From Candidatus Falkowbacteria bacterium (GTDB lineage: Bacteria > Patescibacteriota > Patescibacteriia > XYB2-FULL-38-15): a DNA stretch of 64,000 bases. Positions 8,221-29,406 of the stretch are shown one piece after another. The position numbers and the translations under genes are program-made. The stretch spans positions 67,150-131,149 of the forward strand of contig JACRNW010000001.1 in assembly GCA_016214745.1 (NCBI GenBank), given 5' to 3'. Each line of letters starts with the position of its first letter. The first letter of the stretch is position 1. The notes below the pieces were generated by a model. The model ran no database searches. It saw nothing but the letters and a program-made list of their open reading frames with translations, and had not been told where the DNA came from.

Positions 8221-10101
8221 TTAGTACAAGTCGCTGATCGTCCTTGTGGTCGCCTCAACTGAAACCTTGCTGTAATCCGCGGTTGAACTGACGTCCGCTC
8301 CGGCTACGGCATTGCCGTAATTTGTTTTGTACACTTCCGGCACGGCGATAATTTTCTTTTCCCAATCAGCGCCGTAAAGCGAAGTCGCAACAGAGGCAGA
8401 AGTAATCCAGCGCAATTGGCCCGTGGCAGTTAAGACATAAACCTTTGGATCAAGAACGCGGAAAGGCGTATCCATACTGACAAACTGAACTAGAAAAGTG
8501 CCTGGTTTCGCGAGCACATTGCCGCCAAATGGAACCGACGTCACGATGGTGTGGCTCACAGTTTTAATGGTGGAAAAATTAGTATACCAGGAAAAATAAA
8601 TTGCCTGAGTCGGGAAAACATATCTCTTGCCGTTATCCGCGTAATAATAAACTGCTGTGCTTCCGGCCTCTTTAAACAAATCGCCGTAAACCAAGGTTGA
8701 AGTGCCTGTGAAAGTGACGGTCGTAGTCTGAGAAATTGTTACCCCGTCTGCTATGGCAGTTAGAGTCGCTGTACCAGTCGCTCCTGATCTGACTTGGAAA
8801 GTTGCCTGGCCTGAAGAATTGGTCGTTCCGTCAACGATCGTAATTGCGTCAGATGAACCGCGGTTGGACGACAAGGTTACGGTTTTACCGGAAAGAAGAG
8901 CATCAGAAGCGTCACGAACAGTTACATAAACCACTGAGTAAGAACTGCCGTCGGCCACTACTGAAGCCGGGATCGCGAGAACACTTGACCTTGAGGCGGA
9001 AACAGAACTGGAAACTACTCCGGTGAAGACAACGCTGGCCGTTTGGTCAACTGTTACGCCATCAGCCACCGCAGTAAAAGTGGCGCTGCCCGGCGTGTTG
9101 GAATGAGCTTGAAAATAAGCTTTGCCGGACGCGTCTGTCGTCCCATTAACAATTGCGATTGTGTCAGTCGCTCCACGGCTTGATGACACCGTCACGGTTT
9201 TACCGGAGAGCGCGCTGCCGGAAGAATTTTTTATTGTCGCGATAATTACCGAGACGGAAGAACCATCAGCTGTCACTGATGTTGGGGAAGCGGAAACCGT
9301 TGACAGGCTCGCGGAAACCGCGAGAGCCGGATCAGTGCCAGTTCTAAAACTCCAAGGATTTGTTATCGCGGGAGAGGCGCCGGAAGAAAGTAAATATCCG
9401 ACCAAATCTTCACCGCTCGTTGAAACAGTGATGTTCGTATCATAAGGAGGAGATGTTAATCTTGACCGAGTAACCGTTTTATCACCGTCACTCCAAGCAG
9501 GCATCAACCAACTTCCGGAACTGATGGAAAGCGAAGTCGCACTGGTCTGCATCGGTTCGGAAAAAGTCACTCTAATATATGAAAGCGTAGTGCTGACTCC
9601 AGTTGCTCCGGCCGTCGGGACGGTAGAAATAATAACCGGCGAAGCATTATCGTCAACATTTCTGAGCGGCTGGGTTGGAGCTCCTACACCCGAAACCGTA
9701 ACACTGTCCAAAGTTCCTAAATTTTTGTACTGGAGATCTGCCTGGACATACATAGTTGCCGGGTAGCCGGTTTCATTTGCGTCGCCGGAAACAAGAAGAT
9801 AAAAATAATTTGTTGTGCCGTTACAATCAAAATCTCCGCCCACACCATTTAACCTGCCCGTCGGCGCGGTCAGTCCAATACTTCCGGCGCCCACAGCCCA
9901 ATCGCCCGCTTCAAATTTGCAACTTGTTACCGCTAAATCAAAAGTCACTTTAAGACGGTCGATCGTGCCGTTGTGATCAAAATCCGAAAAAGCGACTGAC
10001 GTTAAAGTCGGCGTCCAGGCGTTTGCCGTTTGCGGTAGCATATTTACCCCGCTTACGGTCAAGACCATCGCGACCATGAGAAAAATTCTAAAGGTTTTCA
10101 T
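8221..10101 (-). CDS. secreted surface protein with two Big_1-like Ig domains and the conserved C-terminal domain (type II)
   Basis: Signal peptide. Two copies of SASPTSVTADGSS...SGKTVT(V/L)SS(S/N)RG...ATF(T/Q). The C-terminal ~170 aa (GDLFKEAGSTAVYYYADNGKRYVFPTQAIYFSWY...) is homologous to the C-termini of 21848-23530 and the N-terminal domain of 25480-29247. Confidence 0.7.
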   Translation of the reverse strand: MKTFRIFLMVAMVLTVSGVNMLPQTANAWTPTLTSVAFSDFDHNGTIDRLKVTFDLAVTSCKFEAGDWAVGAGSIGLTAPTGRLNGVGGDFDCNGTTNYFYLLVSGDANETGYPATMYVQADLQYKNLGTLDSVTVSGVGAPTQPLRNVDDNASPVIISTVPTAGATGVSTTLSYIRVTFSEPMQTSATSLSISSGSWLMPAWSDGDKTVTRSRLTSPPYDTNITVSTSGEDLVGYLLSSGASPAITNPWSFRTGTDPALAVSASLSTVSASPTSVTADGSSVSVIIATIKNSSGSALSGKTVTVSSSRGATDTIAIVNGTTDASGKAYFQAHSNTPGSATFTAVADGVTVDQTASVVFTGVVSSSVSASRSSVLAIPASVVADGSSYSVVYVTVRDASDALLSGKTVTLSSNRGSSDAITIVDGTTNSSGQATFQVRSGATGTATLTAIADGVTISQTTTVTFTGTSTLVYGDLFKEAGSTAVYYYADNGKRYVFPTQAIYFSWYTNFSTIKTVSHTIVTSVPFGGNVLAKPGTFLVQFVSMDTPFRVLDPKVYVLTATGQLRWITSASVATSLYGADWEKKIIAVPEVYKTNYGNAVAGADVSSTADYSKVSVEATTRTISDLY

Positions 10102-10277: not shown

Positions 10278-12626
10278 CTAGTAAATCTTCATCAGCATTT
10301 CTTCCGCGCCGGTGATATCCGCGCCGTTGGCGTAAGAAAGTGTGGTAGGAATTGCGAGGATATTTTCGCTCCGGAAATTATTGGCGGTGAAACCGGCCGC
10401 GGTGACTTTTCTTTTTTCCGCACCCTGGATGTAGTAGACGTCGGTTGTGCCAGAATATTGGACAAGCGCGCCGGTCGGGTGAGTGTCGGTTGAAATATCG
10501 GAACCAAAAAAATAATCGCCCCAGAAAGCAAGAGGCACATCTATGATCTTCGTCGCCCAGTTGCCGCCGTAGAGAGTTTTAATTCTTGTTTCAGTCGGAA
10601 TCCATCGGAGGAGACCGTTTGGTTCAACCGCGTAGACCTTTGGGTTGGTATCAATTTTCACGAGCACGGTGCCGGGACGAACTGTCACATTCTTGCCCAG
10701 AGGAATGGCCCGAAGTTCCTCGGCCGTGACGCTTTTTACGTTGCTCCAATCCGGATACCAACTCTTGTAAGTTTTCTCATTAGGGAAAATATGGCGCTTG
10801 TTGTCCGAGCCAAAGTAATAAACCGTAGTGCTCAAAGGACTCTTGAAGAGATCCCCCGCCACAAGACCGGCTGGATTTTCCGCCGAAGGTGGGGTCTCTG
10901 CTCCCGGTGGCGGAGGCGTGGTATAAGTAATCGTGAAATCCGCGTCGGAAATATCAGAAGCGACAAAGACGCCACTCTCGTCATGTCCTTCAACTTTAAT
11001 CTTTACCGTACTGCTCGGAACGTTAGGAACTGTCCAAGAATATGTGCCGTCATTATTTTCATTCGTGGCAATTGTATATGGGAAATTCACACCGCGATCT
11101 AGAGAATAATAGATTTTTACTTTAGTAATTGTCGTGCTCGTAGAGGACCAAGTAATGTTCTTGCTCGAGAGACCGGCCCAAGATTCGCCGCCGTTTGGAG
11201 ACAAAACCATGACAGAAGCAGGCAATCCTCCGCCGCCTCCGCCTCCTCCTCCGCCAGCCGCGACAGTGGTGAAGCTGAAGGGATTGGCAACCGGACCGGC
11301 CGCGAGATTGCCATCACCGGCAGCTGCCGAGGCAATTGTTCCAGCCAGAGTAATGGTGTATATCTGCATACCGGCAAAGGCGTCATGAGCAGCGTAGGTT
11401 AAAACTGTGTCGCCAGAAGTCCAACCCGCCGCGCCAAGAGTGAATGAAGGAAGTCTCGTGATCGCGCCAGTAACAGAGGCCTGGGTCATGGCTTCGGAGA
11501 AAGTGATGACCATGCTCGCGTCCAAAGCCACATCCGTGGCGGCACTGGCTGGAGAAGTGGTGACAATCACCGGAGCCGCACTGTCGGTAAAGGCCGGCGA
11601 GGAAGCAGAAGTAATAGTTTTGCTGGCCGCGGTGTTTGTACCATCAGTCACGGAAGTACCAGCGGTATAGGCAAGGGAGAGATCACCGACGTTTGTTTTA
11701 ACAGTGGTGGTTGTAAAACCATAATCGCACTCGTCAGCGGCGGCAGAACCGCTGTTACATTCAACTGTTCCTTCCACAATTCCGGCAAAGTTCGCGGCGG
11801 AAGTAAGTGCCCAATCAGCACTGCCATTGGCCACGGCGCTGATGTTTTCCGACCAGATTACGCCGATAAGGTCGAGTTTTCCGTCGCTACCCATAGCATC
11901 GTAAAAAGTGGTGGAGACGACAGCCGGAGCGGCGCCGTCGACATATGTAGCCTGAGATTGGTTACCAAGTGTTGTGTTAGTATTTGGAACACCGTCAGCC
12001 AAAGAAAAAAGGTTCTGGGTGGAAACTGCGAGGAGGCTGCTCGTATCGTTTGTGATTACGGCAGTCGCTTCTGTGCCGAGGTCAACGTCGGTTGAAGTAA
12101 CGGCGCCGGTGATAAGGTCAGTGGCGTTCGCGCCAAAAGCCGCACCGGTAAAGGAACCGACGTTGCCAAAAACCAGATCATTCGCCCGAAGAACTGAAGA
12201 TGCGGTAACTGTTTCCGAATAGTCAAAGATTATACGATCAATCTTGCCGTCAAGGTCAACATCTTGGTAAGTAATAGTTTTAATCACCGGGGCCGCGCCA
12301 TCAGTGAAGGCCGGAGAGGAAGCAGAAGTAATGGTCTTACTCGCCGCGGTGTTTGTACCATCAGTCACGGAAGTACCGGCAGTATAGGCAAGACTTAGAT
12401 CACCGACGTTTGTTTTAACAGTGGTGGTTGTAAAGGTGTAAGTAACGACATTCATTGGCGGCCGCGGCACCACTGTTGCAAATAACGGCGGTTTCAGTGA
12501 GAGCGGCAAAATTCGCCGCGGAAGAAATCGCCCAATCAGCGCTGCCATCGGCCACGGCGCTGATATTTTCTGACCAGACAACGGTAATACGATCAAGTTT
12601 TCCGTCGTTAGTTGCCGGCGAAGCAT
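10278..12626 (-). CDS. C-terminal portion of a split giant surface-protein gene (locus A). Module M x2, a poly-Gly linker, a PNGGE domain and the conserved C-terminal domain (type I)
   Basis: Overlaps 12415-15054 by ~210 nt in another frame. The homologous in-frame sequence exists internally (ADECDYGFTTTTVK). The true start is probably the upstream ORF. The C-terminus GDLFKSPLSTTVYYFGSDNKRHIFPNEKTYKSWY... is shared with loci B and C. Confidence 0.65.
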   Translation of the reverse strand: MLRRQLTTENLIVLPLSGQKISAPWPMAALIGRFLPRRILPLSLKPPLFATVVPRPPMNVVTYTFTTTTVKTNVGDLSLAYTAGTSVTDGTNTAASKTITSASSPAFTDGAAPVIKTITYQDVDLDGKIDRIIFDYSETVTASSVLRANDLVFGNVGSFTGAAFGANATDLITGAVTSTDVDLGTEATAVITNDTSSLLAVSTQNLFSLADGVPNTNTTLGNQSQATYVDGAAPAVVSTTFYDAMGSDGKLDLIGVIWSENISAVANGSADWALTSAANFAGIVEGTVECNSGSAAADECDYGFTTTTVKTNVGDLSLAYTAGTSVTDGTNTAASKTITSASSPAFTDSAAPVIVTTSPASAATDVALDASMVITFSEAMTQASVTGAITRLPSFTLGAAGWTSGDTVLTYAAHDAFAGMQIYTITLAGTIASAAAGDGNLAAGPVANPFSFTTVAAGGGGGGGGGGLPASVMVLSPNGGESWAGLSSKNITWSSTSTTITKVKIYYSLDRGVNFPYTIATNENNDGTYSWTVPNVPSSTVKIKVEGHDESGVFVASDISDADFTITYTTPPPPGAETPPSAENPAGLVAGDLFKSPLSTTVYYFGSDNKRHIFPNEKTYKSWYPDWSNVKSVTAEELRAIPLGKNVTVRPGTVLVKIDTNPKVYAVEPNGLLRWIPTETRIKTLYGGNWATKIIDVPLAFWGDYFFGSDISTDTHPTGALVQYSGTTDVYYIQGAEKRKVTAAGFTANNFRSENILAIPTTLSYANGADITGAEEMLMKIY
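11566..11712. repeat. diverged third copy of the ~145-bp module-M repeat (internal duplication)
   Basis: ~85 % identical to 12296-12440 by eye. Encodes the second FTTTTVKTNVGDLSLAYTAGTSVTDGTNTAASK module. Confidence 0.7.
12296..12440. repeat. ~145-bp repeat copy 1, identical to 19785-19930. The frameshift sits at its distal end
   Basis: Direct comparison of the two stretches (cagtgaaggccggagaggaagcagaagtaatggtcttactcgccgcggtgtttgtaccatcagtcacgg...gtggttgtaaaggtgtaa). Confidence 0.85.
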
Positions 12627-15054
12627 CGTAGAAAGTGGCAGTAAGGACAGCCGGAGCGGCCAAATCTATCATCGTAGCCGGACCAGTTGTGCCAGCAGGA
12701 TTTAAGGCAGCATCCACAACGCTATTGTTGGTATCATCATTGTCATAGGCAATGGTCGGAGCGGTCGCACTGTTAGTTTCGCCCGCATCGGCTGTGACGG
12801 TAATGTCTTTATCCGTACCAAGACCCGGACTATCAGTTGCAACGGAAAAGGTTGCATTAATATCGCCGCCGACAATTGTCCAATCAACCGCCGTGCTGCC
12901 CGTCATTGTTACGGACTCTGACCAGGTGACGCGAAGTGTATCTATCGCGCCATTCCCATCAATATCGCGATATGAACCACCGATCAAAATTGGCGCAGCG
13001 CCGTCGGTTGAGGCAACAGGCGCCCCATCAGTAGCTATGACATTGCCATAGAGATCTTTTAATTTTGTGTTAACCGTGAGTTGCGTATTTGGCGTCGCAC
13101 CGGTGTCCATTGATCCGCTCTCCGTAAAATTCACCCAAAAAATATTATCATTTGCCGCACCGCCGGTAACATAGGCCTCCCCAGCATAGACGGCCACATC
13201 AAGTGTTATAGTAAAATTATCGTTCAAAGCTTCATCAGTAGTAAAAATAATTCTATCAATCTGGCCGTCGCCGTCAGCATCGGCCGTTACTCTTGAAGTG
13301 ACTACCGGACCCGCTGAGTCAATAGTTTGAGTATTGGCGTTCAAAACCACTGCGTCAGTCGGACCGTCGTTAGTTGAGGACATAAACACACCCACGTCGC
13401 CAGCCGAGCTGGCCACTCCATCAGCGCCCACGTCGTTATAAACCGGAATCTGGAATTTTAATGTTCGGCCATTGGTCGGCGTAATGGTTGTCAAAATTGC
13501 CGCAAAAATTCTTTTTCCGCCAATCGGTATTGCCTGGGTTAGGCCGCTCAACCGCCATTCTTTAGAGTCTCCCGGATTCACAGTCATTGCTCCAAGGCTT
13601 GTATCAACCCCAACCCCCTGAAAAATACCATCTCCGTCGTCAGCCCAAAGAGTAACCGAAGAAATATCAGTTGAGTTGACCGCCGTGCCGGTGTTTTGAA
13701 TACCCATGCCGGCAAGCTGATCGTCTTGCCGGTCCACCACGCTGTTCGGCGCCGCACCGCCGGCCGTTCCTTCGTCTACATAAATACTCTTAGTGGCGTC
13801 AATAGTGCCGGCACCCGTAAATTTACAAACCTGAGTTCCGACGCCGCCGCCATCGCAGTCGGCTACAAAATCAGTTAAGGAATCTCCGGCCGCGACGCCG
13901 CCGCCAACATAAACAGTTACATCAGCCGAAGCGGAGTAAGTAAATTTACCAGCCACGTTTTCAATAAATAAATCATTACCCGGCGTCCAAAGAGCATTGA
14001 CTTCTTTCACCCAACCGGCTGTAGCGGCAACGTTTGTCCCGGTATCGCCATCAGTCGGGGTTCCTAAAACAACGCTCTCCGCAACAATCGCGGTCAAACG
14101 ATTATCACCGGCGCTCACTCCGTTGGCTCCTGAATTATTAATATCGTCATAAACGTATTCCGTGCCTACCGCCCAAATTCCATCACCTCCCGTAACTTTA
14201 CCCTGCGTGAGCGCCTCGATTACTGTGAGGCAATCCGCATCCGCAGGACACGCGACAACAGAACCAACCGCGCCGCCAGCTGTCGCCGTAACTCTCGTAT
14301 CGCCAGTGGTCACCGTGAGACTCGTATCGACGTCAATGTAAACATCTTCAGCGGCATCCCACTGATTTGCCGTGCCGCCAAGCGTTACCGTGGGATTCGT
14401 CAGAGCTGTAAGTGAAAGTGCAATATCACCATTTCCCCCGGCCACTGCGGCTTCGGCGCTTTTATTGGAAATATATCTTAGGTTGGCGTCAGAATCTTGC
14501 CAGACGTTGGTCGGAGTCACCACACTATCGGCTACAACATTATCCCCCCCAACAATATCATACAGGGAATCTCCTCCGCTTAAAGCAGTAGCGCCGGCTG
14601 TATTTGTTGCCGTGCCATCAGCGTCAACCAAAGTATCCGCCGCCGAAGTGTAAACGCTATCCGCATCAAGATCGCGGATGACCGCCTCTGTGTCGCCTCC
14701 TTGGAAACCGGCTGCGCCAGCATCTTTATAACCAACGCCGCTAGTTGTTCCCAAAGCCGGAATCGCGGTTAGCGTACTTCCCTGCCAATAATTAATGCCC
14801 GAATTTTGCATTAAAATATCGGCCGTGTAGGCGCCACTGTTCCAGGCGTCGGGAATAACCACATTCATAACTGCCGTCATACTAGAGGATGGACCAATAG
14901 TTACGGTCGCCGCACCGGTATTTGTGAAATTAACCTGCAACGAAGCCTCGGTGAACAGAATCGGATAAATTAAAAATCCGATCATTGATGCGGCCACCAC
15001 AAAATAGGTCGCCACAAACAAGATCGGAAAACGTTTTCGGATAAACCTTGCCAT
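12415..15054 (-). CDS. N-terminal portion of split locus A. Signal/TM anchor, Thr/Gly/Ala/Asp-rich beta-rich region with DxDxDG Ca-binding-like loops
   Basis: MARFIRKRFPILFVATYFVVAASMIGFLIYPILF signal anchor. Ends ...CNSGAAAANEC then RYLHLYNHHC*, where the paralogous sequence continues DYGFTTTTVK. So it is frameshifted relative to 10278-12626. Confidence 0.65.
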   Translation of the reverse strand: MARFIRKRFPILFVATYFVVAASMIGFLIYPILFTEASLQVNFTNTGAATVTIGPSSSMTAVMNVVIPDAWNSGAYTADILMQNSGINYWQGSTLTAIPALGTTSGVGYKDAGAAGFQGGDTEAVIRDLDADSVYTSAADTLVDADGTATNTAGATALSGGDSLYDIVGGDNVVADSVVTPTNVWQDSDANLRYISNKSAEAAVAGGNGDIALSLTALTNPTVTLGGTANQWDAAEDVYIDVDTSLTVTTGDTRVTATAGGAVGSVVACPADADCLTVIEALTQGKVTGGDGIWAVGTEYVYDDINNSGANGVSAGDNRLTAIVAESVVLGTPTDGDTGTNVAATAGWVKEVNALWTPGNDLFIENVAGKFTYSASADVTVYVGGGVAAGDSLTDFVADCDGGGVGTQVCKFTGAGTIDATKSIYVDEGTAGGAAPNSVVDRQDDQLAGMGIQNTGTAVNSTDISSVTLWADDGDGIFQGVGVDTSLGAMTVNPGDSKEWRLSGLTQAIPIGGKRIFAAILTTITPTNGRTLKFQIPVYNDVGADGVASSAGDVGVFMSSTNDGPTDAVVLNANTQTIDSAGPVVTSRVTADADGDGQIDRIIFTTDEALNDNFTITLDVAVYAGEAYVTGGAANDNIFWVNFTESGSMDTGATPNTQLTVNTKLKDLYGNVIATDGAPVASTDGAAPILIGGSYRDIDGNGAIDTLRVTWSESVTMTGSTAVDWTIVGGDINATFSVATDSPGLGTDKDITVTADAGETNSATAPTIAYDNDDTNNSVVDAALNPAGTTGPATMIDLAAPAVLTATFYDASPATNDGKLDRITVVWSENISAVADGSADWAISSAANFAALTETAVICNSGAAAANECRYLHLYNHHC

Positions 15055-15073
15055 AGTTTTTGAATTTAGAGTT

Positions 15074-15273: not shown

Positions 15274-18030
15274 CTAATAAATCCTGGACAGGGCCATCTC
15301 TTCTGCGACAAGCGGTGTGCCCAAAGTGTAAGACAGGGCCGTCGATACAGAAAGAACATTTGACAACTGGAAGTGATTTCCTGTAAAGCCGGCGGTGGAG
15401 ATTAGACGCTTTTCCGTGCCCTGGATGTAATATTTTTCAGTTGAACCAGTGTATTGAACCAAGGCGCCGGTCGGATGTTTGTCGGTTGTGACATCACTTC
15501 CAAAAGTGTAGTCAACCCAGAAGATGACTGGGACATCAATGATCTTCGTCGCCCAAGTGGAGCCGTAAAGAGTGGCGGCGCGAGCTTCGGTCGGAACCCA
15601 GCGAAGGAGTCCGCCCGGTTCAACGGCGTAGACTTTGGGATCAGTCTGGATTTTGACTAGAACTGTGCCGGCCCTGACCGTGACGTTATGGCCCAAAGAA
15701 ATGCCCTGGAGTTGAGAGGCGGAAATAGTCTTGATACCGGTGAAATCCACATACCAACTCTTGTAAGTCTTTTCATTTGGGAAGACGTGGCGTTTCCCAT
15801 CAGAACCATAGTAATAAACTGAAGAACTGAGACTGCTCTTAACCAAATCTCCGACGCTCAAAGAAACTGGAGTTTCACCAGGCGTGCCGGGAGCGGCAAA
15901 GGAGACTGAAGCGGTTTGAGTAAGAACCACGCCCGCGGCAGTAGCCGTGTAAGTTGAAGTGCCGGCTGTGCTTGATTTAACTTCAAAGGTGGCAACACCG
16001 TTCGTGCCAGTTGTGCCGGTCACGGTCGTAACCGTATCAGAAGCGCCGCGCGAAGAAGCGAGGGTCACAGTCTTGCCGGAAAGCAAATTAGAACTTGAGT
16101 CTTTGACGGTGACCGTAACAGTTGATTTGGAAGTTCCATTAGCTGTGACTGATGTTGGCGAAGCAACAACCGTGGAATTGGAAACGGAAACCGCGGAAGT
16201 AGAGTAAGTGATAGTAAAATTTGAATCGGAAATATCATTTAAGCTGCCACTCACCACTTTAACCTTTGCCGTGCTTGTGGCAACGTTCGGAACAGTCCAG
16301 GTGTATGAACCATCGTTCGTTTCGTTCGTCGCTATTGTGTTTAGAAAATTAATACCACTGTCGGTTGAATAATAGAGGCTAACCGGGTCGCTATTACTAA
16401 CAGTCGACCAGGTGATATTGTAAGATCCACCTCCGGTCAGAGTTTCACCGCCGTTTGGAGTTGTGACAGTGATAGACGCAGGCAATGATGCGGCACCGCC
16501 TCCACCGCTTGAAGCTCCAACTGTGGTAAAGTCAAAAGGATTGGCCACTGGACCAGCGCCAAGATTTCCGTCAGTCCCAGCCGCTGAAGCGATTGTTCCG
16601 GCTAAGGTGATGATATAATTCTGCATGCCGGCAAAAGCATCGTGAGCAGAGTAAGTAAGAATTGTACTTGCAGCATTCCATGATGCCGCGCCAAGAGTAA
16701 ATGCTGGAGCTCTGGCAATCGCGCCCGTGACGGAAGCTTCAGTCATAGTCTCAGAGAAAGTGATGACCAAGTTCGCATCCAGTGCCACATCTGTGACGTT
16801 GTCTACCGGAGAGGTGGTCGCGATGACCGGGGCCGCGCCATCAACTAAAGATATTGGACCAAAAGTGGGAGTGTTATTACTGCCGCCCCCATCATTAATA
16901 TTATTGGTGTTATTGGTATAAGTAATGGTTGGTTCAATACCTGCTAGCGTTTGCTTACCGGTTCTCGCGGCAGTGGCGTCAACCGTACCAGTGCCAACGT
17001 CAGTGCAAGTAATAGTGGCTAATGTTCCTGAACCCGCGCATTCGGCGAGGGCAAAGTCACCAACAAGTCCAATATCTCCGGCCGTGGAGAATGCCCAATC
17101 CGCGGCAGTAATAGCGGAAAAAGTCGTTATCTCGGAAAAGGCAAAAGCCACGCGGTCAACTTTTCCGTCAGCAGTAGAATCTGAGTAAGTCGCGGAGATC
17201 ATAAACGGCGCGGCGCCATCTATGTATAACGCTTGGGTTTGGCCGGCGAGCGTTGCGTTGGTATTTGGGATACCGTCAACCAAAGAGAACGCATTTTGAG
17301 TGGTGACCAAAAAGCCTGTGGCGTCATTTGTGTCAACAGCAGTTGCCTCAGTACCAAGGTTGACGTCAGTTGAAGTGACGGAACCAGTGATAAGATCTGT
17401 GGCATCAGCGCCAAAAGCCATGCCGGTAAAATCTCCAGCCGTAGTGGATAAATCATTGGCCGCGAGAACTGAAGCGGCAACAACGGTTTCTGTATAAGCA
17501 AATGTCATGCGGTCAATTTTTCCGTCGGCATCAGCGTCTTTGTAAGTAATTGTTTTAATGAATGGTTTTGAAGCGTCAGTAGCCGTGAAGGTTGACGTGC
17601 CGTCATTTGCATCGGCGACTACACTCGCTAATGTACCTTGATTTGTATAAGTAATTTGCGGATCCGTGACTCCACCAGTAGTCTGTGGCGTAGTAATTAC
17701 GCCTACATCAATGTACTCGTCAGTCGTACAAGTAGCGGAATTGGTAAAACCAACAAAGAGGGTTACACCTATCGTTCCGGTCTCAGCTACAGTCCAATCG
17801 CCAGGTTCGTAAGTGCAGGCTGTAACGTCCGTAAAGGTAAGTCTAATATTATCAACTGTTCCATTAGCATCAGCGTCTATGTATGTGGTAGTGAGAGGTG
17901 CCAGGGCAGCCGCTTTTGCCAAATGAACCGGCATGCTGTACCAAACGCCGAGAGAAATGCTTATGATCATGAGCATTACCACCGACCATGGCAATACTTT
18001 GAAAAATCCTTTTTTGATTCTTTCTGCCAT
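15274..18030 (-). CDS. intact giant surface protein (locus B) with the conserved C-terminal domain (type I)
   Basis: MAERIKKGFFKVLPWSVVMLMIISISLG signal anchor. Ca-binding-like DADADGKIDR modules, SPVDNVTDVALDA...ITFSETMT, a poly-Gly linker, a PNGGE domain, a Big-like domain and GDLVKSSLSSSVYYYGSDGKRHVFPNEKTYKSWY...RIY. It lacks module M. Confidence 0.75.
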   Translation of the reverse strand: MAERIKKGFFKVLPWSVVMLMIISISLGVWYSMPVHLAKAAALAPLTTTYIDADANGTVDNIRLTFTDVTACTYEPGDWTVAETGTIGVTLFVGFTNSATCTTDEYIDVGVITTPQTTGGVTDPQITYTNQGTLASVVADANDGTSTFTATDASKPFIKTITYKDADADGKIDRMTFAYTETVVAASVLAANDLSTTAGDFTGMAFGADATDLITGSVTSTDVNLGTEATAVDTNDATGFLVTTQNAFSLVDGIPNTNATLAGQTQALYIDGAAPFMISATYSDSTADGKVDRVAFAFSEITTFSAITAADWAFSTAGDIGLVGDFALAECAGSGTLATITCTDVGTGTVDATAARTGKQTLAGIEPTITYTNNTNNINDGGGSNNTPTFGPISLVDGAAPVIATTSPVDNVTDVALDANLVITFSETMTEASVTGAIARAPAFTLGAASWNAASTILTYSAHDAFAGMQNYIITLAGTIASAAGTDGNLGAGPVANPFDFTTVGASSGGGGAASLPASITVTTPNGGETLTGGGSYNITWSTVSNSDPVSLYYSTDSGINFLNTIATNETNDGSYTWTVPNVATSTAKVKVVSGSLNDISDSNFTITYSTSAVSVSNSTVVASPTSVTANGTSKSTVTVTVKDSSSNLLSGKTVTLASSRGASDTVTTVTGTTGTNGVATFEVKSSTAGTSTYTATAAGVVLTQTASVSFAAPGTPGETPVSLSVGDLVKSSLSSSVYYYGSDGKRHVFPNEKTYKSWYVDFTGIKTISASQLQGISLGHNVTVRAGTVLVKIQTDPKVYAVEPGGLLRWVPTEARAATLYGSTWATKIIDVPVIFWVDYTFGSDVTTDKHPTGALVQYTGSTEKYYIQGTEKRLISTAGFTGNHFQLSNVLSVSTALSYTLGTPLVAEEMALSRIY

Positions 18031-18037
18031 AAATTTG

Positions 18038-18072
18038 AAATCTAGAATCTAGAAAATAGAATCTAGAAGATT
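18038..18072. promoter_or_regulatory. three tandem copies of the AGAATCTAGA motif upstream of locus B
   Basis: gaaatctagaatctagaaaatagaatctagaaga. Confidence 0.4.
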
Positions 18073-18195: not shown

Positions 18196-19857
18196 CTAAT
18201 AAATCCTGGTCAACGCTGTCTCCTCGGCAGTGATTGGCGTGCCAAGGGTGTAGGATATAGTAGTCGGAGCAGAGAGAACATTGGACAACAGAAACTTGTT
18301 GGCCGTGAAACCAGCAGTGGAGATCAAGCGTCTTTCCGCGCCCTGGATGTAATACTTGTCCGTTGTGCCAGTGTATTGGATCAGAGCACCGGTCGGATGT
18401 TGATCGGTCGTGATGTCGCTTCCGAAAGTGTAATCAACCCAGAAGATGACTGGGACGTCAATAATCTTTGTCGCCCAAGCAGAGCCGTAAAGAGTCGTGG
18501 CGCGAGCTTCGGTCGGAACCCAGCGGAGAAGTCCGCCTGGTTCAACGGCGTAGACTTTGGGATCAGTCTGAATCTTCACAAGCACGGTGCCGGGACGAAC
18601 TTTAACGTTCGCGCCCAAAGCAATACCTTGCAATTGCGAAGCTGTGACGGACTTGATACCGCTAAAGTCAACATACCATGACTTGTAGGTCTTTTCATTT
18701 GGGAAGACATGGCGTTTATTGTCGGAACCGTAATAGTAGACTGAAGTAGAGAGCGGGCTCTTAATTAAGTCACCGACAGAAAGCGCAGTTGGCGTTTCAC
18801 CAGCGCCAGGCGTAGTTGGCGCGCCCACGGCCGTAAAGACAACGGAGACAGTGCTCGTAAGAACCGTGCCGGCGGCAGTAACCGTGTAGGTTGAAGTACC
18901 GGCCGTGCTTGAGTAGACGTTGAAGGTGGCTTTGCCATCCGCGCCGGTTGTGCCGGTTACGGTTGTAATCGTGTCAGATGAACCACGACTTGAAGCAAGA
19001 GTCACGACTTTGCCCGAGAGCGGCACGCTCGCGGCGTCCTTCACGGTCACGGTGATAATTGAGAAACTCGTGCCATTAGCCACGACTGAAGTTGGGGAAG
19101 CTACGATGGTGGAGTTCGCGACTGAAACCGTGGGTGTTGTGTAGGTAATAGCGAAATTGGAATCTGATATATCATTCAATGAGCCGGCCACTGCTTTTAC
19201 TTTGACAGTGCTGGAAGTGATATTCGGCACGGTCCAAGCGTAAGAGCCATCATTCGTTTCATTCGTAGCAATGGTGTATGGGAAATTAATACCGGAATCA
19301 AGCGAATAGTAGAGATTCACGGTGTCGGTCACACCCGTAGCAGACCAAGTGATGTTGTGGCTTGAACCACCAGCCCAAGATTCGCCGCCGTTTGGAGCGG
19401 TGACTGTCATTGAAGCCGGCAGCCCTCCTCCGCCTCCACCGCCGCCGCTAGAAGCCGCGACGGTCGTAAAGGTGTAAGGATCAGCTACTATGGCTGAATT
19501 ATCAAGAGTGCTGTCTCCTGCGGCCGCCGAATTAATTGATCCTTGGACCAAATCAATTGTATAGATTTGCAGACCAGCCCAAGCATCATGCGAAGCGTAA
19601 GTGACCACCGTGTTGCCAGAAGACCAAACAGCTGAACCGAGGGCAAAAGTAGGAGATCTGCCGAGAGTAGTTGTTGTGATATCAGTCGTAGTCATCGCTT
19701 CCGAGAAAGTGATAGAGAAGCTGGCGTCCAAGGCAACGCTTGTCGCGCCGTCGGCCGGAGAGGTGGAAGCAACAACCGGATTTGCACCGTCAGTGAAGGC
19801 CGGAGAGGAAGCAGAAGTAATGGTCTTACTCGCCGCGGTGTTTGTACCATCAGTCAC
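18196..19857 (-). CDS. C-terminal portion of split locus C. Module M x1, a poly-Gly linker, a PNGGE domain, a Big-like domain and the conserved C-terminal domain (type I)
   Basis: The track starts it at a GTG inside module M (VTDGTNTAASK...). The frame stays open upstream to CYTFTTTTVKTNVGDL inside the 145-bp repeat. No signal peptide, so the N-terminus is supplied by 19884-21434. Confidence 0.65.
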   Translation of the reverse strand: MTDGTNTAASKTITSASSPAFTDGANPVVASTSPADGATSVALDASFSITFSEAMTTTDITTTTLGRSPTFALGSAVWSSGNTVVTYASHDAWAGLQIYTIDLVQGSINSAAAGDSTLDNSAIVADPYTFTTVAASSGGGGGGGGLPASMTVTAPNGGESWAGGSSHNITWSATGVTDTVNLYYSLDSGINFPYTIATNETNDGSYAWTVPNITSSTVKVKAVAGSLNDISDSNFAITYTTPTVSVANSTIVASPTSVVANGTSFSIITVTVKDAASVPLSGKVVTLASSRGSSDTITTVTGTTGADGKATFNVYSSTAGTSTYTVTAAGTVLTSTVSVVFTAVGAPTTPGAGETPTALSVGDLIKSPLSTSVYYYGSDNKRHVFPNEKTYKSWYVDFSGIKSVTASQLQGIALGANVKVRPGTVLVKIQTDPKVYAVEPGGLLRWVPTEARATTLYGSAWATKIIDVPVIFWVDYTFGSDITTDQHPTGALIQYTGTTDKYYIQGAERRLISTAGFTANKFLLSNVLSAPTTISYTLGTPITAEETALTRIY

Positions 19858-19930
19858 GGAAGTACCGGCAGTATAGGCAAGACTTAGATCACCGACGTTT
19901 GTTTTAACAGTGGTGGTTGTAAAGGTGTAA
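19785..19930. repeat. ~145-bp repeat copy 2, identical to 12296-12440. Spans the junction of the two locus-C ORFs
   Basis: Direct comparison. Divergence from copy 1 begins exactly at gttac(ttac)acc. Copy 1 has two TTAC units and copy 2 has one. Confidence 0.85.
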
Positions 19931-21434
19931 CAGCCACGGTTTCAGCATCAGCCATTTCGTTGTTGGCCGGAGAAGTGTCGTCAATCTGACCGGCTGCGGC
20001 AACCGTGTAAGTCGGAGTCACTGTGATGGCGGTGTTAGATGTGGCAGAAACAGTGATGTTTAAATTTAAAATGGCGCTAGCGGTGCCCGCGTAATTAGCG
20101 TTGTCAATAGTAGCCGTGCCGGATGAAGCGACCAGTGTAATGGCCGGGAAGCCATCACCAGCGTTGCCATCAGTCACGTCAGAACTTTCGCTAAAGGTCA
20201 AGACAAGGCGGTCAACCGTACCGTCAGAATTGTTGTCTCCAGTAAGAGCGGAAATGAAAGCCGGAGCGGCGCCATCAGCGCCAACCACGGTCTCGCCATT
20301 GGCCATTTCGTTCACCGTGTCAGAGATGCTGCCCGCGCCAGCTGTGGCATAGGTCGGATCAATCGTGATCGCGGTGTTGCCAGTGGCTGAAACGGAAATA
20401 GTGTAGGTTAAAGTGGTAGTTCCGACCGCGCCATAGACACCGGCGGTGACAGTGGCCGTGCCAGAAGAAGCAACCAAAGTGATATCATCGTCAGTGCCGC
20501 CATCAGTGACAGTCACTGGTTCTGAGAAGGTCATGACTAAGCGGTCAACCGTACCGTCAGAATTGTTGTCTCCAGTAAGAGCGGAAATGAAAGCCGGAGC
20601 GGCGCCGTCGGTGCCAGCTACAGACGCTGTGTTGGCCATTTCGTTGTTGGCCGGGGCGACATCATCAATCTGACCGGCTGGAGCAGTGGTATAGGTTGGA
20701 GTCACGGTTAAGGCCGTATTAGCTGTGACAGAAGTCGTGATGTTTAAAGTCAGGGTAGTCGTAGCGGCGGCGGCGTAGTCAGCGTTGTCAATCGTCGCGG
20801 TGCCAGATGAGGCGGCTAAAGTGATGGCCGGGAAACCGTCGCCAGCGTTGCCGTCAGTCACGTCAGAGCTTTCACTGAAGGTCAAGACAAGGCGATCAAC
20901 TGTGCCGTCGGAGTTAGCGTCGCCGGTAAGAGCGGAAATGAAAGCGGGTTTAGCGCCATCGGCACCAACCACGGTTGCAAGGTTGGCCATTTCAGTGCTC
21001 GTCGCCGTATCTGCAATCAGGCCAGCTGGAGCAGTAGCGTAGGTTGGGTCAATAGTAATGGCAGTGTTGCCTGTTGCGCTCACGGTAATATTTAATGTTA
21101 AAGTTGGAACATTTAGCGCTCCGTAATCAGCGTTGTCAATCGTCGCGGTGCCGGATGAGGCGGCTAAAGTGATAGCCGGGAAACCGTCGCCAGCGTTGCC
21201 GTCAGTGATGTCAACGTTTTCCGAAAAAGTGATTACAAGCCGGTCAACAGTTCCATCCGCGTTATTGTCGACCGTGACAGCTGAACTCATTGTGGGCTGG
21301 GCCGCCAAAGCTGGCAAAACTCCTGGATTTTGAGGGGTTGGCATGGTAAAGGTTGCTACCAAGCCAATCACTAAAAATATTACCACCGACCATGGCAATA
21401 CTTTGAAAAACCCTTTTTTGATCTTTTCTGCCAT
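19884..21434 (-). CDS. N-terminal portion of split locus C. Signal anchor plus four ~114-aa tandem repeats
   Basis: MAEKIKKGFFKVLPWSVVIFLVIGLV is near-identical to the locus B N-terminus. Repeats of PAFISALTGD(A/N)NSDGTVDRLV(L/M)TFSE...GNAGDGFPAITL(A/V)ASSGTATIDNA. Ends ...ETVAVTPLQPPLLKQTSVI*, which is a frameshifted read of the module-M repeat. Confidence 0.65.
   Translation of the reverse strand: MAEKIKKGFFKVLPWSVVIFLVIGLVATFTMPTPQNPGVLPALAAQPTMSSAVTVDNNADGTVDRLVITFSENVDITDGNAGDGFPAITLAASSGTATIDNADYGALNVPTLTLNITVSATGNTAITIDPTYATAPAGLIADTATSTEMANLATVVGADGAKPAFISALTGDANSDGTVDRLVLTFSESSDVTDGNAGDGFPAITLAASSGTATIDNADYAAAATTTLTLNITTSVTANTALTVTPTYTTAPAGQIDDVAPANNEMANTASVAGTDGAAPAFISALTGDNNSDGTVDRLVMTFSEPVTVTDGGTDDDITLVASSGTATVTAGVYGAVGTTTLTYTISVSATGNTAITIDPTYATAGAGSISDTVNEMANGETVVGADGAAPAFISALTGDNNSDGTVDRLVLTFSESSDVTDGNAGDGFPAITLVASSGTATIDNANYAGTASAILNLNITVSATSNTAITVTPTYTVAAAGQIDDTSPANNEMADAETVAVTPLQPPLLKQTSVI
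19990..21340. repeat. four tandem ~342-bp coding repeats
   Basis: The spurious plus-strand ORFs at 20101, 20446, 20785 and 21133 all start MSIVAVPDEA.../MTVAVPEEA..., which reveals the period. The protein repeats were aligned by eye. Confidence 0.65.
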
Positions 21435-21466
21435 ATTTTTGAGTTTACGAATTATGAATTGGGAAC

Positions 21467-21847: not shown

Positions 21848-23530
21848 CTAAAATCCTTTATCCTGGTCAATTGTCGCTATCGCCTGCTCTGCCGCTAAAT
21901 TGTAGTCCACGGCGAGATTGATGTCGGCGCCGTAATTGTAGTTCGTAGCAAACACTTCCGGCACGGCAACAATTTTCTTTTCCCAATCCGTACCGAAGAT
22001 CGTGCTCGCCGCATCGGCGGTTTTAACCCAGTGCAAAATTCCGCCGCGGCTTACGGCGTAAACTTTTGGATCCATCACGCGCCAGGGCGTATCCATACTG
22101 ACAACCTGGACCAACTTTCCGGGCCGCACCGTGACGTTGCCGCTTGTCGGCACAGCGGCAAGATCCGCGTCGGAGATTGTTTTAATGGAAGAAAAACCGG
22201 TGAACCATGAGGAATAAATCGCGGCGGTCGGAAAAATGTATCGTCTTCCATCGGAGGCGTAATAGTAAACGGCTGTGCTCGCAGTTCCTTTAATTAAGTC
22301 TCCAGCATGAAAAGAAACGGCGGTAAAAGTTAAAGTCGGTTTTTGGTCTAAAGTCACGACGCCGACTTTCGCGGTCAAAGTTGAAACGCCCGCCGCGGTT
22401 CCCGTGACTTCAAAAGTGGCCAGGCCGTCCGCGCCGGTTAATTCTTTGGTGGCTCTAATATTGTCAGTTGAACGATCGGAAGTTAAGGAGACAGTTTTTC
22501 CTGAAAGCGCGTTGCCGGCTAAATTTTTAACTAATACCGTGACAAATGCTCTTGTCGCGCCGTCGGCCGGAAGAATGGCAGGCGTGACAGAAACCGTGGA
22601 AGCGGCGGCCGAGGCCGAGACTGTCGCGGTTTGATCAACCGTTACAATAGTCCCCTGCCCGATGGTTTCGGCGTTGCCGAGCCAGTCGGCGCCTTGCGTT
22701 TTGATCGTGTAAGTTCCATCCGTAATATTTGTCCAGTTATATTCCCAGTCTGAATAATTGGTGCCGGTGTTTGTAACATCAACCCAAGAACCAGCCGAAC
22801 TGCCGGAACTTATCAAAATTTGGAGTGAAGCCAGAGTTGAACCGCCCTGATCGCGCGCCACGCCAATAATTTTGAAACTTGAAGTGGTGATAATCGTTCC
22901 TGCCGAGGGAGATGTAATCACGGTTTTGGGCGCGCTCGTATCATAGTTTGAAACCCAAATAGTTTGAATATATGGATTTATAATTCCATCCGCGACACCG
23001 GTTGCTCCGGCTAAAAACAAACCCGAATCACCGAGGTCAAACCGACCAACCGTTCCACCGTCAATAAGGAGAGGCACTTTCATTTGGACCGATTTATTCG
23101 CCACGATCGCGCCTTTTGTTCCGGTTTCAATGCTCACAAAAATCCGAAGACCGGAAGCAGGCACGGCTTTTTGCAATCCTGATAAATACCAATAACCGCC
23201 GGTTTCGTAGCGAGTCGCCTCGCCCAATTTTTCATCAACCGCCATGCCCTGAAAACCGGATGCTCCGGCGTCTGTCCAAACGACAACTTTTCCAAAATCC
23301 CAACCCCGGGCCGTGCCGTCATTTTGCAAAGTCAGGGCGTTTAAAACATCAGCCGACCCGTCGGCTCGCGCGACGGTAAAATCCATAACCAGTTTGTCAA
23401 ACTCCGAAGGATAAAAAATCGCGACCGGCGCGCCGGTGTTTGTGACGGTGATTGTTTCAGCGGCGGAGACGGGGAGGAGAGCAAAAACGAATAAAATAAT
23501 TAAAAAAATGGAAATTCTTTTTGACACCAT
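21848..23530 (-). CDS. secreted surface protein with a Big_1-like domain and the conserved C-terminal domain (type II)
   Basis: MVSKRISIFLIILFVFALLPVSA signal peptide. ...SGKTVSLTSDRSTDNIRATKELTGADGLATFEVTG (Big_1). C-terminus GDLIKGTASTAVYYYASDGRRYIFPTAAIYSSWF... Confidence 0.7.
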   Translation of the reverse strand: MVSKRISIFLIILFVFALLPVSAAETITVTNTGAPVAIFYPSEFDKLVMDFTVARADGSADVLNALTLQNDGTARGWDFGKVVVWTDAGASGFQGMAVDEKLGEATRYETGGYWYLSGLQKAVPASGLRIFVSIETGTKGAIVANKSVQMKVPLLIDGGTVGRFDLGDSGLFLAGATGVADGIINPYIQTIWVSNYDTSAPKTVITSPSAGTIITTSSFKIIGVARDQGGSTLASLQILISSGSSAGSWVDVTNTGTNYSDWEYNWTNITDGTYTIKTQGADWLGNAETIGQGTIVTVDQTATVSASAAASTVSVTPAILPADGATRAFVTVLVKNLAGNALSGKTVSLTSDRSTDNIRATKELTGADGLATFEVTGTAAGVSTLTAKVGVVTLDQKPTLTFTAVSFHAGDLIKGTASTAVYYYASDGRRYIFPTAAIYSSWFTGFSSIKTISDADLAAVPTSGNVTVRPGKLVQVVSMDTPWRVMDPKVYAVSRGGILHWVKTADAASTIFGTDWEKKIVAVPEVFATNYNYGADINLAVDYNLAAEQAIATIDQDKGF

Positions 23531-24692: not shown

Positions 24693-24750
24693 GGGAGTCC
24701 TGCCTTTAGGCAGAGACTGGAGTTTGTCTCGCCCTAAAGGGCGGTCTCCG
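24693..24750. repeat. REP-like hairpin pair (types A and B) flanking the RAYT gene
   Basis: GGAGTCCTGCCTTTAGGCAGAGAC and GTCTCGCCCTAAAGGGCGGTCTCC. Each folds as a GC stem with a TTTA/TAAA loop. Type B is roughly the reverse complement of type A. Confidence 0.6.
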
Positions 24751-25285
24751 GTTCGTTAGTTATAAAATCAACAATCGGATATAATTCAAAACACGAGTCA
24801 AACCACTCTTCTCCTTTTATTTTACTCCAACTTTTCGCGCTTGAAAAGGGATAACCAAAAACGCCGACCAAATTTTTACAAAACCCATGTTTTATTGGAT
24901 TTTGGTGAATGTAATTAAAATGTTTCCAAAAATCCGCTTCGTCGCGGATTGAATGGTCAAAATATTGATACCAGATTTTACGGCCTTTCTCATTTTCCGA
25001 TTTATTTAATTCAAAAGAGCTTTTGCCGTTAATGAAGTTAATAAATTTAGATAAATTTTCTCCGTTAAAAATTTTAAACAACAAATGGAAATGATTATCT
25101 AACAACACCCAGGCGTATAAATGAATCTCAAATTTTCGGAGTCCTGCCTTTAGGCAGAGACAAAATAATTTCTTTTTAGAATCCATGTCAAAATATGGTT
25201 TCCGGTCCACAGTTCTCGCGGTAATAGAATAAATTGTGTTGTCGAAAAAAATATGTGGCGGATGGTGATGTTGCGAGTGAAGCAT
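24734..25285 (-). CDS. REP-associated tyrosine transposase (RAYT; IS200/IS605 Y1-transposase-like)
   Basis: IHLYAWVLLDNHFHLLF is the HuH motif. 183 aa, flanked by REP hairpins. Confidence 0.68.
   Translation of the reverse strand: MLHSQHHHPPHIFFDNTIYSITARTVDRKPYFDMDSKKKLFCLCLKAGLRKFEIHLYAWVLLDNHFHLLFKIFNGENLSKFINFINGKSSFELNKSENEKGRKIWYQYFDHSIRDEADFWKHFNYIHQNPIKHGFCKNLVGVFGYPFSSAKSWSKIKGEEWFDSCFELYPIVDFITNEPETAL
25139..25162. repeat. REP type-A copy lying inside the RAYT coding sequence (in frame, encodes LFCLCLKAGL)
   Basis: The 24-nt ggagtcctgcctttaggcagagac is identical to 24694-24717. Confidence 0.6.
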
Positions 25286-29247: not shown

Positions 29248-29406
29248 AAAGTAAATTTCTTTTTTTGCCACGAACCAAACTAAGAACAAACTTGCGTTTA
29301 TTTCTTGGTTTTCAATTCGTGTTTATTTTTTATTAATGACAAAAGCCCCATTTGGGTCGACCTTTATGCTTTTATCGATTTATAAATTAAGAATTAAAAC
29401 TTAAAA

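Follow-up and report, generated by a model that had tools for sequence, protein, structure and literature searches.

Patescibacteria (CPR) are mostly uncultured episymbionts whose surface proteins presumably mediate attachment to the host, and to our knowledge almost nothing is known about how these proteins are exported and regulated. In the stretch of DNA analysed here, 64 kb of a Candidatus Falkowbacteria contig (hereafter the window), two genes begin with a near-identical block of about 60 nt, the 5' cassette of loci B and C, which raises the question of what keeps their starts alike: a recent copy of one onto the other, selection on the encoded peptide, or an additional constraint on the RNA. 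Judged from the sequence comparisons set out below, the B/C identity reflects family-wide conservation at the level of both the peptide and the RNA. We think it probable that the block opens an export signal specific to this lineage and carried by a family of large Ig-like surface proteins, and that a stem-loop in the mRNA imposes a second constraint on it.

The shared start of loci B and C

The cassette comprises the first 19 codons of two tandem Ig-like surface-protein genes on the minus strand. A repeat search and blastn within the window placed the two copies at 17975-18038 and 21379-21442, with 59 of 64 positions identical (92%), and the 32-nt exact core was found in these two places only, none being expected in 100 shuffles. 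When B and C were aligned with MAFFT from -170 to +180, the similarity set in about 8 nt 5' of the ATG (TCAAATTT/TCAAAAAT) and stopped after codon 19, with both flanks unalignable. The first-pass annotation, which had described near-identical starts followed by immediate divergence, was therefore right on both counts. Since the remaining paralogue sequence reached at most 68-78% identity by blastn, the cassette tract stands out. An alternative reading frame from the internal ATG of the cassette (CCATGG) was dropped, as it is missing in the variants with Leu15 (CCATTG).

Locus B is intact and reads, in order, cassette, variable N-body, Big_5, Ig-like, Big_1/Invasin_D3 and C-terminal domain; its product matched a Ca. 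Falkowbacteria protein at 100% in the homologue search, and an exact-protein look-up returned no record. The N-part of locus C terminates out of frame within a repeat shared with locus A (the J tract), and its C-part matches the last 577 aa of L004 gene 1, an intact gene, at 91.5% identity. Locus A starts differently (MARFIRKRF...) and lacks the B/C cassette. The C-terminal domain recurs in C, in A, in 8221..10101 and in 21848..23530, and takes an N-terminal position in 25480..29289; the 3' domain that the loci had been said to share was recovered by blastn as an alignment of 1301 nt at 71%. Sequence searches of PHROGs, Pfam, NCBIfam and PDB matched neither the N-terminus nor the C-terminal domain. 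A sigma-70 scan gave about as many candidate promoters as expected from shuffles, none of them convincing for either locus B or locus C.

Table 1. Coordinates of the features discussed, numbered from the first nucleotide of the window.
Feature	Position	Strand	Description
Locus A	10278..15054	-	N-part ORF 12415..15054; C-part in ORF 10278..12626; frameshift-split
J tract, locus A copy	12295..12441	-	identical over 140 nt to the copy in C
Locus B, intact gene	15274..18030	-	918 aa (MAERIKKGFFKVLPWSVV...); ORF and translation
Shared C-terminal domain (example from B)	15277..15930	-	weak fold matches to cell-wall-binding modules
Putative signal peptide of B	17911..18030	-	~40 aa; h-region VLPWSVVMLMIISISLGVW; possible cleavage after AKA; by eye from the translation
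Predicted stem-loop, locus B (+33..+59)	17972..17998	-	AGUAUUGCCAU-GGUCG-GUGGUAAUGCU; 11 bp including 3 G.U pairs
5' cassette, locus B	17974..18038	-	8 nt of start context and codons 1-19 (MAERIKKGFFKVLPWSVVM)
Locus C, C-part	18196..19932	-	productive frame from the J tract; Big_5, Ig-like, Big_1, C-terminal domain
J tract, locus C copy	19784..19930	-	YTFTTTTVKTNVGDLSLAYTAGTSVTDGTNTAASKTITSASSPAFTD; blastn
Locus C, N-part ORF	19884..21434	-	516 aa (MAEKIKKGFFKVLPWSVV...); cassette and four ~115-aa tandem repeats
Putative signal peptide of C	21303..21434	-	~44 aa; h-region VLPWSVVIFLVIGLVATF; possible cleavage after ALA; by eye from the translation
Predicted stem-loop, locus C (+33..+59)	21376..21402	-	AGUAUUGCCAU-GGUCG-GUGGUAAUAUU
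5' cassette, locus C	21378..21442	-	8 nt of start context and codons 1-19 (MAEKIKKGFFKVLPWSVVI)

At the protein level the cassette probably supplies a long, cleavable Sec-type signal peptide with its basic n-region and the opening residues of its h-region. In the translations, MAERIKKGFFK holds five basic residues (R and four K) and one acidic residue (E), for a net charge of +4, and is followed by a hydrophobic stretch, which is the n-region/h-region order of a Sec-type signal. Candidate AxA sites, read by eye, lie 8-13 residues past the h-region (AKA/A at about residue 40 in B, ALA/A at about residue 44 in C), and from these features we infer Sec export and cleavage of both N-termini. An hmmscan of the 50-aa N-termini and of the whole proteins against NCBIfam and Pfam (E<=1) found no signal-peptide family.

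Family-wide distribution and the origin of the B/C identity

The cassette is conserved well beyond this genome. Codon-degenerate scanning and profile searches detected the N-terminus MA[EQ]xIKKGFFK[VI]LP[WL]SVV in about 30 genes of a narrow clade of Patescibacteria. The codon-degenerate scan for KK[GSR]FFK[VIAT]LP[WL] returned 19 distinct genes, with the motif N-terminal in all of them, and the homologue and profile searches added further diverged variants, invariably within residues 1-40. The proteins that carry the motif range from 78 to 2218 aa and have very different bodies and one common C-terminal domain.

These relatives bear on the proposal that recent gene conversion or unequal recombination within this genome gave one locus the 5' end of the other. 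Such an event would fit the abrupt edges of a tract so much more alike than its background, as well as Trp15, which B and C have in common and which is Leu in most slot-orthologues of C. The same region has moreover been converted elsewhere in the family, where two Ga0265297 paralogues are identical over a 78-nt run (-6..+72) and both carry the private synonymous variants TTT10 and TTA13. Against this, 4 of 57 nt separate B from C, including a 2-nt difference within one codon, whereas relatives from other genomes lie nearer to each of them: C is 2/57 from OZ246416_a and from Ga0180007, and B is 2/57 from Ga0265296-3516. Within-genome distances (4, 0, 8, 10 and 4; between-genome mean, 6.6) were not significantly smaller than those of random pairs (P=0.13), the 57-nt cassettes of B and C did not cluster together, and the homogenisation of 5' flanks within a genome looked for as a mark of gene-conversion antigenic variation was seen in only one of five genomes. 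The same cassette is also held across genomes whose single-copy genes are just 72-88% identical. Since B and C are no closer to each other than to genes of other genomes, their identity is a matter of family-wide conservation and not of recent conversion between them, and we regard the copying event as improbable. The idea of a segmental gene-conversion family thus holds in part: mosaic genes and conversion tracts do exist (see below), but the B-C cassette identity bears no signature of conversion.

Synonymous constraint and a predicted mRNA stem-loop

If conservation and not copying explains the cassette, selection on the signal peptide could in principle be all that is needed, with the codon conservation and the hairpin described here arising incidentally from start-proximal codon preferences and shared ancestry. 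The peptide motif is indeed deeply conserved, with amino-acid variants, and most of its codons do show synonymous variants. At invariant amino-acid columns of 10 genes, however, pairwise codon identity was 0.80 within the cassette, the highest of all 10-column windows, and 0.50 outside it (P=6e-5), and the codons kept in the cassette are seldom used in the family (GCA, 14%; GTA, 13%; TCG, 10%; GTG, 20%). Synonymous constraint on the cassette thus exceeds that on the remainder of these genes; in the single-copy flanking genes codon identity was 0.50-0.74. Part of the low synonymous diversity could be due to recombinational homogenisation across strains rather than to selection.

Codons 12-20 can fold into an 11-bp stem-loop, which is the RNAalifold consensus structure, with 99% of cells paired among 19 sequences and single-sequence z-scores of -2.9 and -3.1. 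Since three of its pairs are G.U, only the sense RNA can form it. Among 22 distinct sequences 93% of cells were paired, versus 33-65% with slid partners (93-99% versus 33-68% over both alignments), these pairs being counted in the same sequences from which the structure was derived. At least 9 of the 11 pairs are retained in 24 of 26 genes. Double-sided changes occurred at 5 pairs compared with 0.7 in shuffles, a count that is too high because GC and GU tie at one pair, and only about 3-4 of them are independent compensatory events (L029 A-U>G-C, L031 A-U>G-C and L025 U-A>A-U), again on a structure taken from the same sequences.

Recoding with synonymous codons separated the structure from the protein that it encodes. 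All 11 pairs arose in 0.7% (B) and 0.09% (C) of the trials, the minimum free energies of -13.5/-12.4 kcal/mol compared with about -3 kcal/mol for the recodings, and the nulls gave P=0.007, 0.0009 and below 3e-4, so that the structure is kept beyond what coding requires. Six of nine diverged members also folded better than their own recodings (Fisher P=4e-8); L026, L028 gene 1 and L029 had no significant hairpin in this test, and paralogues with classical signal peptides folded no better than their own recodings. A covariance model of the hairpin matched at the two gene starts only. Rfam gave no match at E<=1 in 15000-22000, and only tmRNA and tRNA at gathering score in the whole window.

For selection on the peptide alone, then, speak the small number of double compensatory changes and the three diverged members without the hairpin; against it stand the codon identities, the recoding results and the pattern of wobble positions, since those of V12, L13, P14, V17, V18 and residue 19 are exactly the ones that pairing requires, while those of Ser16, in the loop, and of Gly8, where all four bases occur among the cassette genes, vary. 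We consider it unlikely that the peptide accounts for everything, and favour a peptide signal with an added constraint on the RNA.

Two further observations concern the position of these signals. The conservation of codons 2-11 (GCA, ATC, TTT-TTC) is unaccounted for by the hairpin, and the onset of the hairpin at +33 is farther downstream than expected for an element abutting the initiating ribosome. A weaker hairpin at +7..+30, formed by the A-run and T-run around Gly8, appeared in single-sequence folds only and not in the alignment consensus, and was dropped.

A hairpin of this kind could also act in DNA, where the neighbouring Y1/RAYT transposase, or some other recombinase responsible for moving gene bodies, would recognise it in single-stranded form. 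Y1 transposases work on imperfect DNA hairpins, and a RAYT gene lies next to the family in conserved synteny. The stem, however, needs its three G.U pairs, and these pair only weakly in DNA and leave C.A mismatches on the other strand, and the covariance model found nothing beyond the two gene starts. The REPs that belong to the RAYT (CCGCCCTTTAGGGCGAGAC) have no sequence relation to the cassette hairpin, are confined to 24.69-25.40 kb and are absent from the vicinity of the cassettes, so a link between RAYT/REP and the cassette was rejected; a role of the hairpin in DNA seems extremely unlikely.

Mosaic genes, a proposed mechanism and known systems

Mosaicism across strains, the test set by the first-pass annotation, is present. 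Upstream types U1 and U2 each occur with both types of signal-peptide core (Ta and Tb) and with as many as six types of body (all assigned by eye from printed segments, as automatic clustering merged them), so upstream region, core and body reassort. Locus B resembles Ga0265296 gene 2 at residues 19-155 (0.96/0.78; 0.96 for residues 19-45) but is closest to JBAZEY gene 1 at residues 396-918 (0.88-0.93), and this incongruence of segment similarity among strains marks the genes as chimeras. The proposed architecture of conserved 5' end, variable middle and conserved 3' modules accordingly applies to the family. The 145-bp junction repeat was likewise recovered, as the J tract of loci A and C (98.6% over 147 nt, blastn); its 140 nt of complete identity between A and C, versus 84% to the orthologue, identify a conversion tract. 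In the assembled sequence, a TTAC duplication at the 5' edge of the locus A copy (within 12435-12447) shifts the frame. A DGR-like template/variable repeat was discarded for this tract: the copies are identical for 140 nt and then fully diverged, with no adenine-specific mismatches.

Could these tandem paralogues be a programmed system of antigenic or phase variation, with an expression site, with A and C as silent donors, and with the 5' cassette and 3' domain as anchors? Their ends are conserved around a hypervariable centre, mosaicism is strong, and two of the three loci are frame-disrupted exactly at the 140-nt identical tract. Each copy, C included, nevertheless comes with an ATG, a cassette and a terminator of its own and with an upstream region distinct from the others; the counterparts of the frame-broken genes are intact in related genomes, so that a single expression site with promoterless, truncated donors is not what we found. 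No recombinase or invertase is associated with the genes, all copies are in direct orientation, and the adjacent RAYT has only its unrelated REP hairpins. Nothing indicates a programmed donor-cassette/expression-site system, which we judge very improbable.

In the mechanism that we propose instead, purifying selection would keep the signal peptide on genes whose mature parts are hypervariable, and codons 12-20 would be held in rare synonymous codons that form the 11-bp stem-loop in the sense transcript. By analogy with fepA, the stem-loop may tune translation initiation or early elongation, or serve as a common handle for a regulator. Together, the constraints on peptide and RNA would produce the near-identity of B and C with no need for recent copying. 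A side effect is that the cassette is the one stretch of homology linking genes whose upstream regions and signal-peptide cores differ, and crossovers in the cassette, the J tract and other conserved blocks would have shuffled promoters/slots, signal cores and bodies into new combinations among strains; the crossover site inside the cassette is a putative one.

A lineage-specific export signal that marks a hypervariable, recombining family of surface proteins is thereby defined, together with a candidate mRNA structure embedded in it, and sites of recombination that reshuffle the family's genes are located. The cassette also offers a conserved site of ~57 nt for primers or probes with which variant surface-protein genes could be retrieved from metagenomes. 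A more far-reaching and rather doubtful suggestion is that a whole set of hypervariable surface-protein genes of episymbiotic Patescibacteria shares, in this stem-loop, a cis-acting RNA element dedicated to control by a regulator or the export machinery, or to the coupling of translation to export. If so, a single regulator, be it a protein or a small RNA, or else the export machinery would select the variants made, through a common mRNA handle, and the cassette would be a dual signal, in peptide and RNA, at which crossovers exchange gene bodies between slots as well.

The cassette system is no new category of system. YSIRK-G/S and KxYKxGKxW signal peptides carry a short basic motif, in the n-region or early h-region, on many large repetitive wall-associated surface proteins, and the family described here likewise has a family-specific basic motif on a long signal peptide of otherwise unrelated surface proteins. 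It differs from both in its motif, its host clade (Patescibacteria) and the absence of an NCBIfam or Pfam match at E<=1, and from KxYKxGKxW in the residue order of IKKGFFKVLPW too, which is incompatible with K-x-Y-K-x-G-K-x-W. Unlike both Gram-positive families it has no LPXTG, its C-terminal domain resembling instead a non-covalent wall-binding module (weak fold matches), and it has an embedded mRNA hairpin, which is absent from the definitions of those families.

For fepA, a translation-activating stem-loop in the early coding sequence has been described (Jagodnik et al. 2017, cited in PMC11979758). As in that account, the stem-loop predicted here falls in the part of the mRNA that encodes the signal sequence of an exported protein, a short way past an unstructured start. 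The two are unrelated in sequence and the stem here starts at +33; the likeness is one of position and context only. Similar architectures are described for the Trypanosoma cruzi MASP family, whose N-terminal (signal) part is highly conserved and whose remainder varies strikingly (PMC2691823), and for hypervariable Ig-domain proteins of Thermococcales, with a conserved N-terminal part and a variable remainder (PMC8416519). Organisms and sequences are unrelated to ours in both cases, and the analogy is one of architecture only.

Finally, the conserved flanks, hypervariable centre and conversion tract (the J tract) recall Anaplasma msp2/p44 and Neisseria pilE/pilS, but here there is no single expression site and there are no promoterless donors, the copies being complete transcription units; Borrelia vlsE is another segmental gene-conversion system. 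In Helicobacter pylori babA/babB and Streptococcus pyogenes emm, near-identical 5' and 3' ends enclose divergent middles, and chimeras arise by recombination between paralogues or strains. Our family differs from these in its proteins and phylum, in a 5' block of just ~60 nt and in a B-C identity that does not stem from recent conversion, and it shares with them the mosaic pattern seen here.

The shared start of loci B and C

Loci B and C, which together with locus A are neighbouring genes for Ig-like surface proteins, begin with a common cassette that a repeat search and blastn recovered as a two-copy family (59/64 positions identical, 92%). In gene sense it consists of TCAAAWWT-ATG plus the first 19 codons of both ORFs, and its 32-nt core, ATTACCACCGACCATGGCAATACTTTGAAAAA, is present in two exact copies in the window and in none of 100 shuffles. 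On aligning -170..+180 we found no similarity between B and C in either flank. The near-identical starts and the immediate downstream divergence described in the first-pass annotation were thus both recovered, and the shared block is a real, non-random feature. Outside it the paralogues are 68-78% identical by blastn, with one exception, a repeat common to loci A and C (the J tract).

Features of the surface-protein cluster
Feature	Position	Strand	Basis or remark
Cassette copies B and C	17975-18038, 21379-21442	minus	repeat search, blastn
Predicted hairpin copies	17972-17998, 21376-21402	minus	RNAalifold
Locus B	ORF 15274..18030	minus	918 aa, begins with cassette
Locus C N-part	ORF 19884..21434	minus	516 aa, begins with cassette
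Locus A	12415..15054 + 10278..12626	minus	two ORFs, frame-split
Locus A early-CDS hairpin	14989-15027, approximate (codons 10-22 of ORF 12415..15054)	minus	recoding comparison
J tract copies	12295-12441 (A), 19784-19930 (C)	minus	blastn, 98.6% over 147 nt

A homologue search matched the product of locus B at 100% identity to a Candidatus Falkowbacteria MAG protein annotated as 'Ig-like domain-containing protein'. Besides further Ig-like domains, Big_5 and Big_1/Invasin_D3 occur in B, C, A, 8221..10101 and 21848..23530, all of which share a C-terminal domain of ~200 aa that is N-terminal in 25480..29289. The proposed architecture of conserved 5' end, variable middle and conserved 3' modules holds. 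The N-part of locus C carries four tandem repeats (19951-21285) of ~333-351 nt (~115 aa) each, mutually 63-87% identical, with the unit 'DGTVDRLV(I/L)TFSE...DGNAGDGFPAITL'.

Other Patescibacteria homologues of B begin with the same peptide. For sampling unbiased by nucleotide identity, we scanned collections of genomes and metagenomes for KK[GSR]FFK[VIAT]LP[WL] with a pattern degenerate at every codon. It gave 22 distinct matches, 19 of them true and all 19 at an ATG (consensus MA[EQK]xIKKGFFK[VI]LP[WL]S[VM]V); among GTDB species representatives the motif is confined to three. When 1.84 billion representative proteins were searched with a profile built on the 40 N-terminal residues, 14 true matches came back, all of them at residues 1-40. 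The matched proteins are 78-2218 aa long, include N-terminal variants (for example MAQKVKKQFFKILPWSVA and MTQRIKKGLFKVLPASVV) and have the same C-terminal domain as the window genes. No Pfam or NCBIfam model, those of known motif-type signal peptides included, matched at E<=1. Since the translated N-terminus has a basic n-region, then a ~19-residue hydrophobic stretch and, 8-13 residues on, AxA, it is probably a long Sec signal peptide.

The similarity of the two starts had been read as a sign of gene conversion, which the distances do not bear out. The first 57 nt of B and of C show 4 differences. C has closer counterparts in the related sequences OZ246416 and Ga0180007, with only 2 differences from genes there, and B has one in Ga0265296_1003516, likewise with only 2; between genomes the average is 6.6. 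Within five genomes with two cassette genes each the distances are 4, 0, 8, 10 and 4, not significantly closer than random pairings (P=0.13). Because B and C show no special closeness and the compared genomes are well diverged (flanking single-copy genes have 72-88% nt identity and, where residues are identical, 0.50-0.74 codon identity), the comparison indicates clade-wide conservation of the cassette, not recent copying. Conversion is seen in one genome, Ga0265297, where two paralogues show no difference over -6 to +72 and have private synonymous variants in common.

A predicted hairpin in the early coding sequence

At invariant amino-acid columns of ten complete genes, mean codon identity is 0.80 in the cassette vs 0.50 in the rest, and no other 10-column window anywhere in the gene is as conserved at synonymous sites as the cassette (P=6e-5, degeneracy-matched resampling). 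The codons conserved there are seldom used in these genes (GCA 14%, GTA 13%, TCG 10%, GTG 20%), and at the Gly8 wobble position all four bases are found. At +33..+59 RNAalifold predicts a stem of 11 bp and a loop of 5 nt, AGUAUUGCCAU-GGUCG-GUGGUAAUGCU, whose pairing needs the wobble bases of Val12, Leu13, Pro14, Val17, Val18 and residue 19; where bases vary, they are in the loop or alternate in a way that keeps the pair (A/G facing U, C/U facing G). Single-sequence folds gave z = -2.9 and -3.1. With three G.U pairs in its stem, the hairpin can form in the sense RNA only.

At least 9/11 pairs are retained in 24 of 26 genes, diverged members included. Among 22 distinct sequences, 93% of cells pair vs 33-65% for slid partners, and double-sided stem changes outnumber those in shuffles, true independent compensations being few, about 3-4 (A-U to G-C in the related sequences L029 and L031, U-A to A-U in L025). 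All 11 pairs survive in 0.7% (B) and 0.09% (C) of synonymous recodings, with folding energies of -13.5 (B) and -12.4 (C) kcal/mol vs about -3 for recodings. Six of nine diverged genes, two in shifted register, fold better than their own recodings (Fisher P=4e-8); three fold no better. No hairpin signal against recodings was seen in unrelated genes or in paralogues whose signal peptide is classical. The hairpin has no Rfam match, and a covariance model of the hairpin matched in the window only at the two gene starts.

Locus A, whose N-terminus (MARFIRKRFPILFV...) is different and may be a diverged form of the cassette, also has an early-CDS hairpin (MFE -15.9) that beats its synonymous recodings (P=0.009).

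Function at such a place has a precedent in fepA, where a stem-loop within the signal-sequence coding region activates translation (Jagodnik et al. 2017, as cited in PMC11979758). By analogy, the cassette hairpin would have a function.

Exchange within the surface-protein family

Related genomes conserve the order RAYT (REP-associated tyrosine transposase), TPR gene, 560-aa gene, variable genes, 626-aa gene and S8 peptidase, the variable genes differing in number and composition. In the window the RAYT gene (24734..25285), whose synteny with the surface-protein cluster is likewise conserved, sits amid six REP-like hairpin repeats (24688-25401) of two types with three copies each, one inside the ORF (25138-25161).

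Mosaic structure across strains, the test set beforehand, emerged from both type combinations and segment-wise identities. With types assigned by eye in 19 cassette genes, upstream type U1 occurs with both signal-core types (Ta and Tb) and six body types, U2 with both cores and three bodies, and body B1 downstream of four different upstream types. Every pairing of U1 or U2 with Ta or Tb is represented, which implies at least one exchange between upstream region and signal core; the sole sequence common to the different upstream regions and cores there is the cassette, and the exchange point probably lies inside it. Residues 19-155 of B have 0.96/0.78 identity to gene 2 of Ga0265296 and 0.19-0.25 to gene 1 of the related sequence JBAZEY, but from residue 396 on B is closest to that JBAZEY gene (0.88-0.93). 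The C-part of locus C (18196-19932) is 91.5% identical to the C-terminal 577 aa of gene 1 of the related sequence L004 (L004 2-4051), above the 85-88% of housekeeping neighbours, whereas the N-parts are only 35-41% identical. This points to recent between-lineage exchange of the 3' half.

Loci A and C have one frame break each, in a segment that reads in frame in related genomes, and the J tract copies lie exactly at these breaks. The ~145-bp junction repeat of the first-pass annotation was confirmed at 147 nt (98.6%), including 140 nt without difference; the tract is only 84% identical to the orthologous tract of L004 and 86% to a second copy within A, at 94-96% protein identity. In A its 5' edge carries a TTAC duplication (within 12435-12447), and with this removed the tract reads ...NECRYTFTTTTVK, matching L004; locus C reaches it in a different wrong frame. 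The identity reflects either a recent intragenomic exchange, a conversion that would have left pseudogenes, or faulty assembly of the two copies. The conversion signature of the window appears to be the J tract and not the 5' cassette.

Elsewhere, 42000-44700 and 52000-59000 are G+C-rich islands (0.54-0.66 vs about 40% genome G+C) with long ORFs overlapping on both strands. One of these resembles a Ser/Thr kinase (54593..56311), and others are rich in Cys/Asp and look secreted. The islands may have a foreign origin or mark a place where the MAG is chimeric. The tmRNA gene (46086-46468, tag ANLFNKVKSAFRVPSFAPATA) and tRNA-Asp (62179-62256) are ordinary.

The observations are best explained by an export-signal cassette that is conserved, carries an mRNA stem-loop within it and belongs to a surface-protein family undergoing recombination. 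This is a variant of three known kinds: motif-bearing signal peptides, early-CDS stem-loops and mosaic surface-protein families.
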